From positions 11,487 through 59,552 of the forward strand of contig CAYHFD010000003.1 in the NCBI GenBank assembly GCA_964355855.1: 48,066 bases of DNA. The letters are read 5' to 3'. Below the pieces are notes generated by a model. That model saw nothing but the letters and a program-made list of their open reading frames with translations. It was not told the DNA's origin and made no database searches. Below, in pieces: positions 2,769-15,492 of the stretch. This DNA comes from an uncultured Candidatus Saccharibacteria bacterium. Its GTDB lineage: Bacteria > Patescibacteriota > Minisyncoccia > Phycocordibacterales > XYD1-FULL-46-19. Each line of letters begins with the position of its first letter. The stretch's first letter is position 1. The translations under genes and the position numbers were made by a program.

Positions 2769-2825
2769 CTACCACACTTCTGTAAATTTGTTAACAATGG
2801 CTCCGTCACCCGCAGGAAGTGAGAA
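2769..2825 (-). promoter_or_regulatory. Shared cassette leader/promoter module L1
   Basis: Minus strand: TTCTCACTTCC-TGCGGGTGAC-GGAGCC-AT-TGTTAACAAATTTACAGAAGTGTGGTAGGAAT. TTAACA-N17-TAGGAA can be read as -35/-10. TGTTAACA is a perfect palindrome. Confidence 0.45.
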
Positions 2826-2830
2826 CTCAT

Positions 2831-3478
2831 TTACTTCTTCATTAAGATAAAGAAATGAGAATGCTTCTTTTTTAGTTTTGGAAAATAATTTGTTATTTGT
2901 TGTATTTTGATAAGAGAAAAATCTTTAATCAGCTCTAGGGCTTTTTCATAATCTACATAGGTATGAGGTACGTTCATTTCGGGACCTTCGGTCTTTATTA
3001 AAGTAAAATCATCTATTCTGTTTTCTTTATACTTTTCCCAGGAGTCTGTTTCTTTTGAGGTAAGGGTTATAAATGCTTCGCCCCCTGGTTTCAGTACTTT
3101 GTGGACATTTTTTAATGTTTTTTCCAAACCATTAAGATCAGCATGATGAACGGTATACATAGAAAGTACAGCGTCAAAAGACTCTTCTTCGTAGGGAAGA
3201 TCTAACATATCTCCAACTTGGATATCAATTGGCAGTTCTAAATCTCTTACTTTTTCTTTAAATGTATCAACACCGTCCTGTGCCAAATCAAAGGCGCTCA
3301 CATCAAAACCTTGATTTGCTAAAAAAATTGAGTGCCTACCGGTGCCACATCCAAGATCTAAAACAGTATTAACTTTCTGTTCTTTCCATCTTTTTATAAC
3401 GAGAATCACTTGTTCATCAGGTGTTTCCCAGTATGGGTTACTCACTTTATTCCAAATCCAGGGTTTTGATTCGATCAT
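2831..3478 (-). CDS. Class I SAM-dependent methyltransferase
   Basis: Motif I VLDLGCGTGRHSIFLANQGFDVSAFDL; motif post-II DAVLSMYTVHH; 215 aa. Confidence 0.85.
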   Translation of the reverse strand: MIESKPWIWNKVSNPYWETPDEQVILVIKRWKEQKVNTVLDLGCGTGRHSIFLANQGFDVSAFDLAQDGVDTFKEKVRDLELPIDIQVGDMLDLPYEEESFDAVLSMYTVHHADLNGLEKTLKNVHKVLKPGGEAFITLTSKETDSWEKYKENRIDDFTLIKTEGPEMNVPHTYVDYEKALELIKDFSLIKIQQITNYFPKLKKKHSHFFILMKK

Positions 3479-3513
3479 GTGACTTATAGTATCTCATTGT
3501 AGTTATAAAAAGT

Positions 3514-3552
3514 CTCGAGCTCCGCGGGCTCGAGGAAGTGAGGAAGTTGGGT
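3514..3552 (-). repeat. Partial copy of the cassette flank module plus GC hairpin (terminator-like) after the hydrolase gene
   Basis: Minus strand: ACCCAACTTCCTCACTTCC then CTCGAGC-CCGCGGA-GCTCGAG then ACTTTTTAT. The CCAACTTyCTCACTTCC string recurs at 6064-6084 and partly at 2351-2364. Confidence 0.45.
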
Positions 3553-3565
3553 TATACTAAAAAAA

Positions 3566-4159
3566 TTATGACTTGATATTTCCCACCAATTTAGGGAAAT
3601 CGTTCTGTAGGAAGTGACCTTTGTCTTCAAAAGAAACAAGGGTGGCATCAGGCAAATTCCTTTTATATTTATGCACATCAGCATATGGAACCGAGGTGTC
3701 ATCTTGGCTGTGATATAAATATATCTCGCCTGCTTGCTTCCTCAGCCCCTCCAGACTTTCGGTCAAAGCAAAGTCAGCCAGTGATTCATCGCAATCAACA
3801 TCGTCATAAGGAGCGACCACCAAGTGAACAGATTTTATTTTCTTCGGGAAATCATTTTCCGATAGATATTTAGTTAAAAATATCCCACCGAGCGAATGCC
3901 CTACCAGAATCACTTCATCACGCAAAAGTGGAAACAATTTTTCAAACCAAATCTTCCACTCTTCGTAGCGAGCATTTTTGGCATTTGGCATTTTAGGGTA
4001 TATCACTTCAAACTCAGGCAAGGCTTCACCGAGATTATCCTTCCAGTCCTTTCGATTGAGCTTTTCTAGGGTTATCTCGCAGGAATTTAGATACTCCATA
4101 TACTCCTCGTAGGTTTCGAAGGTGGTACCACCGTGAATTAATACAATTTGTGATTTCAT
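3566..4159 (-). CDS. Alpha/beta hydrolase (YdeN/RBBP9-like serine hydrolase)
   Basis: 197 aa. Nucleophile elbow ILVGHSLGG. Size and layout fit the small COG3545-type esterases. Confidence 0.7.
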   Translation of the reverse strand: MKSQIVLIHGGTTFETYEEYMEYLNSCEITLEKLNRKDWKDNLGEALPEFEVIYPKMPNAKNARYEEWKIWFEKLFPLLRDEVILVGHSLGGIFLTKYLSENDFPKKIKSVHLVVAPYDDVDCDESLADFALTESLEGLRKQAGEIYLYHSQDDTSVPYADVHKYKRNLPDATLVSFEDKGHFLQNDFPKLVGNIKS

Positions 4160-4161
4160 AA

Positions 4162-4695
4162 TTAAATTTTAGCTAAAAGATCTAGTAACTCTGGCTCCAC
4201 TATTCCTGGCACAAAGTGTGATTTTTCTTCCTCGGTCAAGTTCTGCAACCTTCCAAGTGGCCAAACTTCAAAACCTTGGGATTTACCCTCCTCTATCTTA
4301 AGGTCAGCCAAGTTTCCATTGTAGATATATACAAATTGCTTTTTGAAAGTATTGTTTATTTTACCACTAACAAGGTCATCTGATTTAAGTCTGATTTTTC
4401 TTAAAAACTTTAAATCCTCCATTTTAGCCTTAATACCAGTCTCCTCCTCCATCTCCTTCAAAGCCGTGTCTTCATAGTTCATACCCAAATCGACATGGCC
4501 ACCCACAGTCGCATCCAGCATGTCTGGAAAGGTATCTTTGTCTTTAGCTCTAAGCTGAAGAATTAGCTCCTTATTGGGCGTCAAAAACCAGACATGAGTT
4601 TCGCGGTGCAGGAGCCCCTCTTTGTGTATTTTTCCCCTTGCCTCCTCCCCGATTATTTCGTCGTTTTCATCGACAATGTTTAGTTTTTCTTCCAT
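4162..4695 (-). CDS. NUDIX hydrolase
   Basis: Nudix box GGHVDLGMNYEDTALKEMEEETGIK. 177 aa. Its stop is 2 nt from the start of the hydrolase gene. Confidence 0.85.
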   Translation of the reverse strand: MEEKLNIVDENDEIIGEEARGKIHKEGLLHRETHVWFLTPNKELILQLRAKDKDTFPDMLDATVGGHVDLGMNYEDTALKEMEEETGIKAKMEDLKFLRKIRLKSDDLVSGKINNTFKKQFVYIYNGNLADLKIEEGKSQGFEVWPLGRLQNLTEEEKSHFVPGIVEPELLDLLAKI

Positions 4696-14359: not shown

Positions 14360-14399
14360 GACACTTTTGTCTCATTACGAAAAAGGGGGTAAAAACAGA

Positions 14400-14578
14400 A
14401 TCTTCCATTACATGGACTGTATACCTTTTGGCTAAAGTTTTCGCCCACTCAACTTTAGGCTCAAAAGCTTTTCGATCCCTGACGTGAGTGAAGCAGTTCA
14501 CTCACTCCGGGGGAGCAAAATTAAAACGCCTTGCGGCGTTCTAAATTTTGCTCCGTTGGATAGATGAGGTTAGAACCT
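14400..14578. repeat. 178-nt structured repeat, copy 2
   Basis: Direct repeat of 6937-7114. Ends 6 nt from the stop of the C39-like gene. Variable hairpin gtgagtga-agcagt-tcactcac at 14484-14505. Confidence 0.8.
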
Positions 14579-14584
14579 GGTTAA

Positions 14585-15082
14585 TTAATTTGGATAAACA
14601 GCAATCAGCTGTCTAATAATCATTTCCTCTTTTTGAGGATATAGTCCCTCATAATCAAACCAAACTCGAAGAAAATCATCTCTCTTTAATACGCGCTCAG
14701 CACCAATTTCAGGATCAAGAAGATAAATATGTTCATTATTTAATCCGATGACTAACGAGTAGTGTCCATCAGAAACCGATGAATTAGATAAACCCCTAGA
14801 AAACCAATCAACTATGACTGGCACTTTTTTATTTAACCAAATGTTAATCTCGTCAAAAGAACTTTCGTTTTGAATTTCAGCTTTGAAATTTAACTCCTCC
14901 GCTACGCGTTTAATGTCTTTTAAATTAGTGCCTAATTCAGAATTAGTATTAAGCATGGTCGACAACTCTTGTTCACTTTTATTTATACCGTAATAATCAA
15001 GAACCATCTTCAAAGATGCCGGGCCGCACATCCCAGCATTTAAAGTTTCTTGAAAAGGATTAACTTTTAACTTTTCCATCAA
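14585..15082 (-). CDS. Peptidase C39-like (BtrH-like) cysteine peptidase domain protein
   Basis: Catalytic Cys context NAGMCGPASLKMVLDYYG and His context SDGHYSLVIG. 165 aa. No signal peptide or ABC fusion. Confidence 0.7.
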   Translation of the reverse strand: MMEKLKVNPFQETLNAGMCGPASLKMVLDYYGINKSEQELSTMLNTNSELGTNLKDIKRVAEELNFKAEIQNESSFDEINIWLNKKVPVIVDWFSRGLSNSSVSDGHYSLVIGLNNEHIYLLDPEIGAERVLKRDDFLRVWFDYEGLYPQKEEMIIRQLIAVYPN

Positions 15083-15130
15083 TCAATTTTAACAAATATA
15101 TTGATTAGGTTCTATCTCCTGCCTGGAGTA

Positions 15131-15162
15131 CAAAAACAACCCATGTTATTAGGGCTGTTTTT
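15131..15162 (-). terminator. Terminator downstream of tRNA-Asn
   Basis: Minus strand: AACAGCCC-TAATAACAT-GGGTTGTT followed by TTTGT, a few nt after the tRNA 3' end. Confidence 0.45.
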
Positions 15163-15167
15163 AGGGG

Positions 15168-15492
15168 CTCCCCCGGCAGGGATCGAACCTGCGACCAATC
15201 GATTACACTAATCCTAAAATTACTCCTAGGGGTGGACTATATCATCACCATATCTTTTGAGACTTAGGTGCGAGGCGCTTCCGCTCCAAATAAATCGGAG
15301 AGTACTCCCTTTCGGGATAGTCTCTGAACCTGCCTTCACTTGCTTGCAATTCGAAGCTTTAGCGAAGGATTGGCTGCTGATTACCCATTTATATTGGGCT
15401 TCCAGCAATTCACCTCGTTTACTCTTCTGGATTTCTCCAGAAGGCTGCATATGACTATACAGTCGATTGCTCTACCGCTGAGCTACAGGGGA
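15168..15492 (-). tRNA. tRNA-Asn(GUU) interrupted by a group I intron in the anticodon loop
   Basis: Exons 15492-15459 and 15205-15168 fold into a perfect cloverleaf. Acceptor UCCCCUG/CGGGGGA; D stem GCUC/GAGC; anticodon stem AUCGA/UCGAU with loop CU-GUU-AA; T arm GCAGG-UUCGAUC-CCUGC. U1-A72 and G73 match bacterial tRNA-Asn. No CCA is encoded. Confidence 0.85.
15206..15458 (-). ncRNA. Group I intron (IC3-like), 253 nt, no ORF
   Basis: The 5' exon ends in U, which can form a U.G pair (exon CUGU with intron GCAG). The intron ends in G. It contains CAGAGACUA and GAUAUAGUCC, the P7/J8-7 core strings seen in cyanobacterial and Azoarcus tRNA introns. Confidence 0.75.

Follow-up and report, generated by a model that had tools for sequence, protein, structure and literature searches.

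Tandem tRNA-end-like sites beside tRNA-Asn suggest a cassette array formed by repeated insertion in a small groundwater Patescibacteria genome

Organization of the tRNA-Asn island

The window examined here, that is, the whole stretch of 48,066 nucleotides (nt) that was analysed, corresponds to positions 11487-59552 of contig C3 of genome G000, which comprises 760 kb in 42 contigs (~42% G+C, 99% complete) and belongs to a groundwater bacterium with a tiny genome. It contains a gene for tRNA-Asn(GTT) and, beginning at the 3' end of this gene, an island of small genes in which a recurrent promoter leader is headed by short strings resembling the terminus of the tRNA. A reading of the sequence alone (the original prediction) had taken these heads for decayed copies of the tRNA end, possibly left behind by serial insertions. 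The features are collected in Table 1; positions prefixed C3 are those of the contig, and all others are those of the window.

One border of the island is given by the collinearity of C3:788-7707 with contig C5 (14845-6344) of G004, a genome of the same genus, at 78-81% identity, a match that ends at C3:7707. The other is the gene pepF beside tRNA-Asn, an arrangement kept in G004, G013, G003 and G001. Between these borders lies ~18.9 kb of DNA, which begins at the tRNA-Asn 3' end and interrupts the synteny, and which carries genes for a methyltransferase, an alpha/beta hydrolase, a NUDIX protein, a nucleoside deoxyribosyltransferase-like protein, a NYN protein, a split PurH N-terminal domain and a C39 peptidase, among others. 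Its repeats, consisting of four strict P-type sites, three degenerate ones and two tRNA-type copies (the types are described below), all lie on the minus strand.

The tRNA-Asn gene (~15493-15166, minus strand) was identified by reading its exons directly; its 3' end is GGTTCGATCCCTGCCGGGGGAGCC, and its minus-strand terminus GATCCCTGCCGGGGGAGCC occupies 15184-15166. No tRNA was reported in the window by ARAGORN, which misses this gene because a group I intron (Rfam RF00028, 94 bits, 15213-15468, minus strand) splits the anticodon loop. Alleles without the intron, from other organisms in the same metagenomes, join 15205 to 15459, and the tRNA-Asn of G003 is the same but for the intron. As an observation in its own right, the intron in the anticodon loop (~15206-15458) is devoid of an open reading frame (ORF) and is present in G004 and several relatives; it is absent from G003 and G013 and so varies within the genus.

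The four tRNA-like strings of the original prediction were all found on the minus strand as described, namely GATCCTGCCGGGAGCC before leader L3 (6938-6923), CCCCGCCCGGGGGAGCC before L4 (4769-4753), GGGGGAGCC before L2 (5378-5370) and CCTGCGGGTGACGGAGCC before L1 (2816-2799). That each is followed shortly by TGTTAACA was also confirmed: the window holds four copies of GGAGCC-N2-4-TGTTAACA, where 100 shuffles gave an expectation of 0.00. Across the genome there are five occurrences, all on the minus strand of contig C3 and all in the one island beside tRNA-Asn, and two extra copies of the leader TGTTAACAAAT lie left of the window (C3:8899 and C3:8266). The leader reads as a sigma-70-like promoter (TTAACA-17 nt-TGnTAG) followed by GAAAGGAGG and a start codon, with TGTTAACA forming a perfect palindrome that overlaps the -35 box.

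The genome has 144 non-tRNA GGAGCC sites; when the 18 nt preceding each were scored for tRNA likeness, L3 ranked joint first and L4 approximately third to fourth, with L1 at about seventh and L2 at about tenth. By this measure L3 and L4 are clearly tRNA-like individually, and L1 and L2 weakly so, as a group only. The L2 head GGGGGAGCC occurs seven times in the genome, three of these at this locus. The rank of L3 carries the caveat that its GATCCTG is the end of a 183-nt repeat, the second copy of which has GATTCTG at that place. Of two further leaders, L5 has only GGAGCC in common with the tRNA end and L6 has GGAGTC.

Two types of left arm

The sequences ending in GGAGC could be divided into two types by their internal spacing. 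The B type, to which every tRNA-Asn belongs, has the TTC of the T-loop 16 nt ahead of GGAGC. The P type, present at the downstream sites, has a T-loop-like TTCTNAN 21 nt ahead of it, a spacing 5 nt longer than that of the tRNA. The P type takes the form TTCTCACTTCC-N10-GGAGC at L1, L2 and sites in G003, G004 and G013, and the form TTCTAACCCTATCTATCCAACGGAGC at 7111-7086 and 14575-14550, with close variants in G016, G023, G025, G063 and G064. L4 is a partial tRNA-type copy in a junction from which the CTCACTTCC block has been deleted.

The 21-nt pattern has five matches in this genome, four of them in the island and all four on the strand of the tRNA, and spacings of 17-20 and 22-26 nt gave no match in the island. 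P sites within 15 kb downstream of tRNA-Asn and on the same strand were found in at least 10 of 43 family genomes (G000, G010, G013, G016, G022, G023, G034, G063, G064 and G065); none of the 51 matches of a control pattern with 22-nt spacing was so placed in the family genomes. The string AGGTTCTAACC...GGAGC (7086-7114 and 14550-14578) had also been considered as a decayed tRNA end and was reassigned to the P type, since the same 21-nt form occurs at the far ends of the recombinase islands described below.

The commonest head, TCGAGCCCGCGGAGCC, carries the CGCGGAGC acceptor of most tRNA-Asn genes of the family, where this genus has GGGGGAGC, and the commonest heads are therefore not decayed copies of the resident tRNA. 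Judged by their arms, we take L1 and L2 to be element-type half sites. The description of the heads as decayed copies of this tRNA end consequently stands for L3 and L4 and falls for L1 and L2, which belong to a conserved family with a fixed 21-nt geometry. Nor can likeness to the tRNA be used as a gauge of age or distance, because the family of L1 and L2 spans genera and often bears the CGCGGAGC acceptor of other lineages.

In serine integrases, the distal motif of attP half sites is shifted 5 bp outward when compared with attB (Rutherford et al., PMC3783163). By analogy, the difference between 16 and 21 nt is consistent with, rather than proof of, such a shift between attB and attP half sites. 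Half-site symmetry in the form of GAACC on the right arms was looked for and was not found.

Comparison with related genomes

A contig scan for GGAGCC-N2-3-TGTTAACAAAT returned mostly chance matches in unrelated phyla, the informative records being G003 and G004, and a metagenome scan for the tRNA end returned four contigs. In G003, a member of the same genus, a cassette comes immediately after the live tRNA-Asn (...CCCTGCCGGGGGAGCC-CTG-TGTTAACAAATTAACAAAGGTGTGGTAG, a Shine-Dalgarno (SD) sequence, an ORF and the same terminator module), with the live tRNA end occupying the head position 3 nt from TGTTAACA (...CCCTGCCGGGGGAGCC-CTG-TGTTAACAAATTAAC). The GGAGCC of the heads thus stands where the terminus of the tRNA stands. 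In G010, tRNA-Asn (...GGAGC) and three downstream P sites are each followed by the identical 21 nt TTTTGTAAAGCAAAGTAAAGT, and in G063 tRNA-Asn and two of three downstream P sites are each followed by the same promoter, TTGACATAG..TGTGCTAGAAT. The NYN module of the window abuts the 3' end of the transfer-messenger RNA (tmRNA) gene in G006 (..TCCACC-CAAAG-TTGACA) and sits in the tRNA-Asn island of G023. From the layouts of G003, G010, G063 and G006 a rule that crosses genera can be drawn: tRNA end/R, cassette, look-alike/R, cassette, repeated, where R is a genus-specific right arm.

The presence of att-like sites in one orientation at a hypervariable island anchored on tRNA-Asn is thereby supported by G003, G010, G063 and the ladders across the family. 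Serial insertion beside the tRNA, as originally proposed, gains support as site-specific insertion and needs correction as to its anchor: the TGTTAACA array hangs on L3, a displaced copy of the tRNA end, and the live tRNA-Asn of this genome carries a native trailer, not the TGTTAACA leader. At the distal end of the array, the equivalent tRNA-end copy of G004 is intact and is followed by TGGCTGACCCC, an 11-mer found in G000 at 2296-2306 behind a degenerate head, and the two genomes form an empty-versus-occupied pair at a secondary site.

The contents of the island differ among G000, G003, G004 and G013. At the DNA level, the only ORF that G000 has in common with the islands of the other three is that of the alpha/beta hydrolase (82%). 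Other genomes of the family have the NYN gene at 75-86% identity. By contrast, identity is 85-100% in the junction modules, which consist of the leader, the terminator with TTTTCTTTTACCCCAACTT, and CTCACTTCC-N10-GGAGC.

A large serine recombinase at tRNA-Asn in relatives

The absence of an integrase from the window, remarked on in the original prediction, was confirmed and holds for the whole genome with the exception of one Xer-like tyrosine recombinase, on contig C16. In G004, however, the ORF reading into the same tRNA-Asn end encodes the C-terminal part of a large serine recombinase, of which the N-terminal half is unassembled. A full-length relative in G037 (91-94% identical) has 537 amino acids (aa) with Resolvase, Recombinase and Zn_ribbon_recom domains. 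Among the NCBIfam families it matches CcrB best, with a score of 100 bits that is far below the cut-off of 900; no CcrA-like partner was found.

A sample of 201 genomes of the order contained homologs of this recombinase in 48. Convergence on the tRNA-Asn 3' end was seen in G004, G037, G045, G077, G191, G107, G046, G111, G229, G064, G032, G027 and G015, and likewise on the metagenome contig L087. The proximal junction of the recombinase islands reads GGAGC(C)/AGTTAGG.. or similar. In G064 a recombinase island of 10.7 kb ends with the P-type sequence TTCTGAACTTGCTTACTAAGGGGAGC, followed by a native trailer very like that of the window, and in G105 the same P arm lies at the far end of the recombinase island, again followed by a native tRNA trailer. 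The trailer behind tRNA-Asn in the window (15100-15165) is a match to B', the right arm of attR in the G064 recombinase island; given this resemblance to the end of the G064 island, the live tRNA-Asn looks like an unoccupied attB. The cargo of the recombinase islands at L077 (G037:C2) and L092 (G105:C8) includes defense genes, namely those for a type I restriction-modification specificity subunit (MAD5-like), an HpaII methylase and endonuclease, and a DUF3800 protein. In the DNA examined of four recombinase islands from other families, no internal direct repeats of the tRNA end were found.

The 183-nt element

The island contains two copies of a 183-nt element that are 91% identical. Each is composed of a P arm, a terminator hairpin, a copy of the tRNA 3' end that is inverted and interrupted by a hairpin, and a body of ~75 nt, and both strands fold far better than shuffled sequences (z ~ -5). 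Homologs were found directly behind tRNA genes in 20 of 60 relatives, and the tRNAs concerned have at least 10 different identities (L003-L019). At these loci the inner arms mirror the local tRNA, and at the far end the tRNA 3' end recurs from the T-loop onward as a direct repeat, perfect over 19, 18 and 21 nt in L011, L013 and L017, respectively. The conserved hairpin has 9 bp and a GCAG loop. Of 162 stem pairs in 18 instances, 160 are of the Watson-Crick kind; double changes are many and G-U pairs nearly absent, a pattern that suggests a constraint acting at the level of DNA. L3, the far repeat of element copy 1, would most simply be the tRNA end as it originally was, moved away from its gene when DNA was inserted in the T-loop region.

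An Rfam search of the element returned nothing, even at E <= 1. Its identification as an IS110 bridge-RNA/seekRNA guide or as a T-box was considered and rejected, the neighboring 364-aa gene encoding a class II aminoacyl-tRNA synthetase (aaRS) core and not a DEDD transposase.

Further features of the island and its surroundings

Table 1. Features of the tRNA-Asn island, listed from the tRNA towards the distal end of the array (window positions; B type and P type as described in the text)
Feature	Position	Strand	Remarks
tRNA-Asn(GTT) with group I intron	15166..15493	-	3' end is a B-type site, TTC 16 nt before GGAGC
Native tRNA trailer: terminator, then GTACTCC..AGGAGATAGAACC	15100..15165	-	
Cassette ORF, C39-family peptidase	14585..15082	-	Between native trailer and first P-type site
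P-type site TTCTAACCTCATCTATCCAACGGAGC, then terminator and 183-nt element copy 2	14550..14575	-	
183-nt element copy 2	14396..14578	+	P arm, terminator hairpin, inverted tRNA 3' end split by hairpin GTGAGTGAA-GCAG-TTCACTCAC, body
7.3-kb segment between element copies	7115..14395		aaRS-like, LD-carboxypeptidase, methyltransferase, NUDIX and phosphatase genes, others
P-type site TTCTAACCCTATCTATCCAACGGAGC, then terminator and element copy 1	7086..7111	-	
183-nt element copy 1	6932..7114	+	Hairpin GCAAGGCAA-GCAG-TTGCCTTGC
L3: B-type copy of tRNA 3' end GATCCTGCCGGGAGCC, then AGG and leader TGTTAACAAATCAACA	6904..6938	-	Terminal direct repeat of element copy 1
Cassette ORF: PurH N-terminal (MGS/IMPCH-like) gene, in two frames	6146..6840	-	
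Degenerate P-type head TTTCTCACTTCC-TCGAGCCGGC-GGAAGTACC, then TTGACA promoter	6040..6076	-	NYN module (5454-6030) beyond
L2: P-type head TTCTCACTTCCCGTAGGTGGGGGAGC, then C-TCG and leader TGTTAACAAATTTACA	5351..5396	-	Cassette ORF nucleoside deoxyribosyltransferase-like, 4827-5309
Conserved terminator module (4767-4811), L4 head CCCCGCCCGGGGGAGCC, leader	4734..4811	-	Next ORFs: NUDIX 4162-4695, alpha/beta hydrolase 3566-4159
P-type head, pan-family form CTCACTTCC-TCGAGCCCGC-GGAGC, without TGTTAACA leader	3518..3546	-	Upstream of methyltransferase gene 2831-3478
L1: P-type head TTCTCACTTCCTGCGGGTGACGGAGC, then C-AT and leader TGTTAACAAATTTACA	2781..2825	-	107-aa cassette ORF 2410-2733; terminator module 2361-2404
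Distal end of TGTTAACA array: degenerate head AAATCACTTCTTGTAGGCGGGGGAG, then TA and TGGCTGACCCC	2296..2333	-	

The ORF that occupies the position of the C39-family peptidase gene in G064 is unrelated to it. Within the 7.3-kb segment (7203-9368), the class II aaRS catalytic core (D/K/N type, 364 aa), in which no anticodon-binding domain was found, adjoins an LD-carboxypeptidase (S66, MccF-like). The two frames of the PurH N-terminal-like gene are 6649-6840 and 6146-6616, and the break between them (6616-6649) may be a frameshift. Opposite the NYN-domain gene (5454-6040) is a TTGACA promoter directed at it, from which nothing but a conserved hairpin of ~55 nt (UACG loop) and a T-run would be transcribed; the module, conserved at 75-86% in seven genomes, may be a toxin/antisense-RNA pair.

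The terminator module CCGCCCCCAACG..GGGCGGTTTTCTTTTACCCC (2361-2404 and 4767-4811, and in many genomes) is unusually uniform for a plain terminator stem, with 95-100% identity across genera, and its metagenome depth is ~3-10x the local depth, with several different flanks. Outside the island, two near-identical 28-bp palindromes (15614-15641 and 15946-15973) flank an ArsR-family gene upstream of pepF, and the histidine-kinase gene running off the left end of the window has tandem 42/84-nt repeats in its 5' part (1-270).

A model of repeated insertion and its alternatives

Given the geometry of the sites, their conservation, their adjacency to tRNA-Asn and the recombinase found at this position in relatives, we consider it probable that the heads are left halves of a site-specific recombination site. 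They would mark the junctions in an array of cassettes that grew as insertion recurred at the tRNA-Asn 3' end or at a displaced copy of it. The crossover point, the enzyme acting on the small cassettes and the order of events that we infer are as follows. The chromosomal site would be B/R, where B is the 3' end of the tRNA with its 16-nt spacing and R the right arm, which in this genus would be N2-3 and the promoter leader TGTTAACAAAT. A cassette would have the order R-SD-ORF-terminator-P, with P a look-alike of the tRNA end that has TTCTNAN 21 nt before GGAGC. If crossover took place at or just after GGAGC(C), the cassette would land beside the tRNA, B/R would be regenerated there and P/R left behind, so that repetition would yield a ladder in one orientation. 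A later and larger insertion in the T-loop region would have displaced the original tRNA end in this genome, bringing with it a native trailer, the C39 cassette, both copies of the 183-nt element and 7.3 kb of genes. L3 would be the end so displaced, with the old array still joined to it. The enzyme is most likely a CcrB-like large serine recombinase acting in trans, and as it has been lost from this genome the array is probably frozen now.

A number of observations weigh against this model. There is no serine recombinase in this genome, and the search for integrases left of the window that the original prediction had called for gave no recombinase in either the island or its left flank. TGTTAACA modules are missing from the recombinase islands of other families. 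Canonical serine integrases do not regenerate attB, so a relaxed CcrB-like enzyme or another recombinase must be assumed. The comparison of strains and metagenome-assembled genomes that had been suggested bore out variation of island content among related genomes; at the level of cassettes, however, contigs from metagenome runs X4, X7, X9 and X10 (three studies, 2019-2025) have the same arrangement and show no variants in the parts covered. One X9 contig joins 7043 to 14508, skipping exactly one repeat period of 7464 nt whose sides share 58 nt, and the skipped DNA is covered by other X9 contigs; the joint may come from a second strain in the same sample that lacks the 7.3-kb segment, or the assembly may have passed through the 58-nt repeat. 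Finally, the homology of the alpha/beta hydrolase breaks off at the ends of the ORF and not at P/R, one leader variant (L4-type) precedes unrelated ORFs in G000 and G004, and the same native trailer and P site flank unrelated ORFs, which limits the reach of the model. From these last data it follows that exchange between modules also occurs, and the hydrolase breakpoints indicate that homologous or illegitimate exchange of this kind also shapes the array.

The same exchanged ORFs, along with the missing serine recombinase and the terminator module that is nearly invariant across genera and over-represented in metagenome depth, favor an explanation without any site-specific recombination. Leader, terminator and GGAGCC head would then be a single intergenic expression module that arose once by the tRNA and spread by duplication, gene conversion and homologous recombination with DNA acquired from relatives, ORFs being swapped between conserved flanks. 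This leaves unexplained why a live tRNA or tmRNA end stands exactly at the head position in G003, G010, G063 and G006, why the 21-nt geometry is fixed around a variable N10, and why the same kind of site lies at the far ends of recombinase islands, and we regard it as unlikely, if far from negligible. A tyrosine recombinase acting on folded single-stranded DNA, in the manner of integrons or of CTX-type integrative mobile elements exploiting Xer (IMEX), is judged a good deal less plausible. The Xer-like enzyme, or an integrase of a phage or plasmid, would in that case recognize the inverted tRNA-end copies of the 183-nt element as a folded site; that the single recombinase of the genome is of the tyrosine type, that the elements stand behind many tRNA identities with perfect direct repeats of 18-21 nt from the T-loop and inner arms mirroring the local tRNA, and that the hairpin pairing suggests DNA-level constraint would all suit it. 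Against this, there is no IntI-like gene, no attC-like inverse core site and no dif-like core, the cassettes have promoters of their own, the P/R junctions of the small cassettes lack an inverted copy, and nothing ties the Xer-like gene on contig C16 to the tRNA-Asn locus.

A purely regulatory role for GGAGCC-N3-TGTTAACA, as an operator or UP-like element with a palindromic -35 box whose likeness to the tRNA is coincidental, draws on the perfect palindrome of TGTTAACA over that box and on how little L5 and L6 share beyond GGAGCC or GGAGTC. Yet no chance matches are expected, the live tRNA end replaces the head in relatives, and the right arms vary among genera with the geometry of the left arm kept. 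The comparative data make this explanation unlikely, and we attach very little weight to it.

Relation to known systems and significance

Taking repeated insertion at tRNA-Asn as the preferred model, the closest published precedents are ladders of other integrated islands. In Dehalococcoides, tandem islands specific to ssrA are accompanied by DsiB, a serine recombinase of the CcrB family (PMC3146451). Both systems have tandem islands on the downstream side of a single small RNA gene, a one-orientation ladder of 3'-end repeats, and many units without an integration module. A large serine recombinase of ~540 aa by attL, its gene pointing at the tRNA-like gene, is a further parallel, found here at the same tRNA in G004 and at least 10 other genomes. 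They differ in that the target is tmRNA there and tRNA-Asn here, and in that the repeats there are plain 20-bp copies and those here are look-alikes with a spacing 5 nt longer; most units here consist of one gene (0.5-2 kb) and have their promoter and terminator modules in common, a promoter serves as the repeated right arm, and the recombinase is absent from this genome. The composite staphylococcal SCCmec/CcrAB islands resemble the array as modeled here in that insertions follow one another at the 3' end of a single conserved gene, with a serine recombinase tolerant of product-like sites, in the persistence of recombinase-less elements between repeats, and in CcrB being the best NCBIfam match of the relatives' recombinase. 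The score of 100 bits against a cut-off of 900, the lack of a CcrA-like partner, and the different target, host and cargo set the two apart.

In Prochlorococcus, hypervariable islands flanked by tRNAs and known as tycheposons contain scattered partial tRNAs and broken integrases (10.1101/2020.12.28.424599). As there, a streamlined genome has a hypervariable island by a tRNA gene, in which new elements would have pushed older ones inward. Tycheposons, in contrast, carry an integrase (mostly of the tyrosine type) and often replication genes, and the mini-cassettes described here are of promoter, ORF and terminator without either; Pfam scans of the island ORFs with a family match showed no integrase, primase or helicase, and several ORFs matched nothing. 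Integron arrays provide a further parallel, being one-orientation arrays of mostly single-ORF units with unrelated cargo and conserved junctions, the content of which varies among close relatives. The present array is nevertheless not an integron. It has no IntI, attI, cassette promoter (Pc) or attC hairpins, its cassettes have their own promoters and terminators, and it is anchored on a tRNA; no recombinase is found in the window or left flank, the sole tyrosine recombinase being that on contig C16, and the junctions consist of a terminator hairpin, a P-type head and a sigma-70-like promoter, with no inverse core partner of GTTAACA. What sets it apart from the known systems is the combination of single-gene cassettes with shared modules, a right arm that is a promoter, and look-alikes shifted by 5 bp in place of plain repeats. 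By comparison with these systems, the island looks like a miniature and so far undescribed version of the tRNA-linked genomic islands.

The genomes of the Candidate Phyla Radiation (CPR; Patescibacteria) are tiny and have few recognized mobile elements, and the exchange of accessory genes among these organisms is poorly understood. In the literature searched we found no description of an insertion platform of this type at tRNA-Asn in Patescibacteria. As a tentative and rather doubtful extension, a whole CPR family (relatives of Candidatus Vogelbacteria) might keep an integron-like, IntI-independent platform for gene capture at tRNA-Asn, in which R-ORF-P minicircles of single genes would be inserted at the last bases of the tRNA by a recombinase reading the 5-bp-shifted mimic of the tRNA end and the entry site would be restored each time. 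Unrelated genes would then accumulate with ready-made promoters and terminators. The parts of such a platform would be a left arm of tRNA type or its 5-bp-shifted mimic, a right arm that is a promoter, and a family of large serine recombinases with restriction-modification cargo. If this is true, the sites would provide natural attB/attP pairs for a new clade of serine integrases, and gene flux in these organisms would have a main route in the conserved platform at tRNA-Asn.

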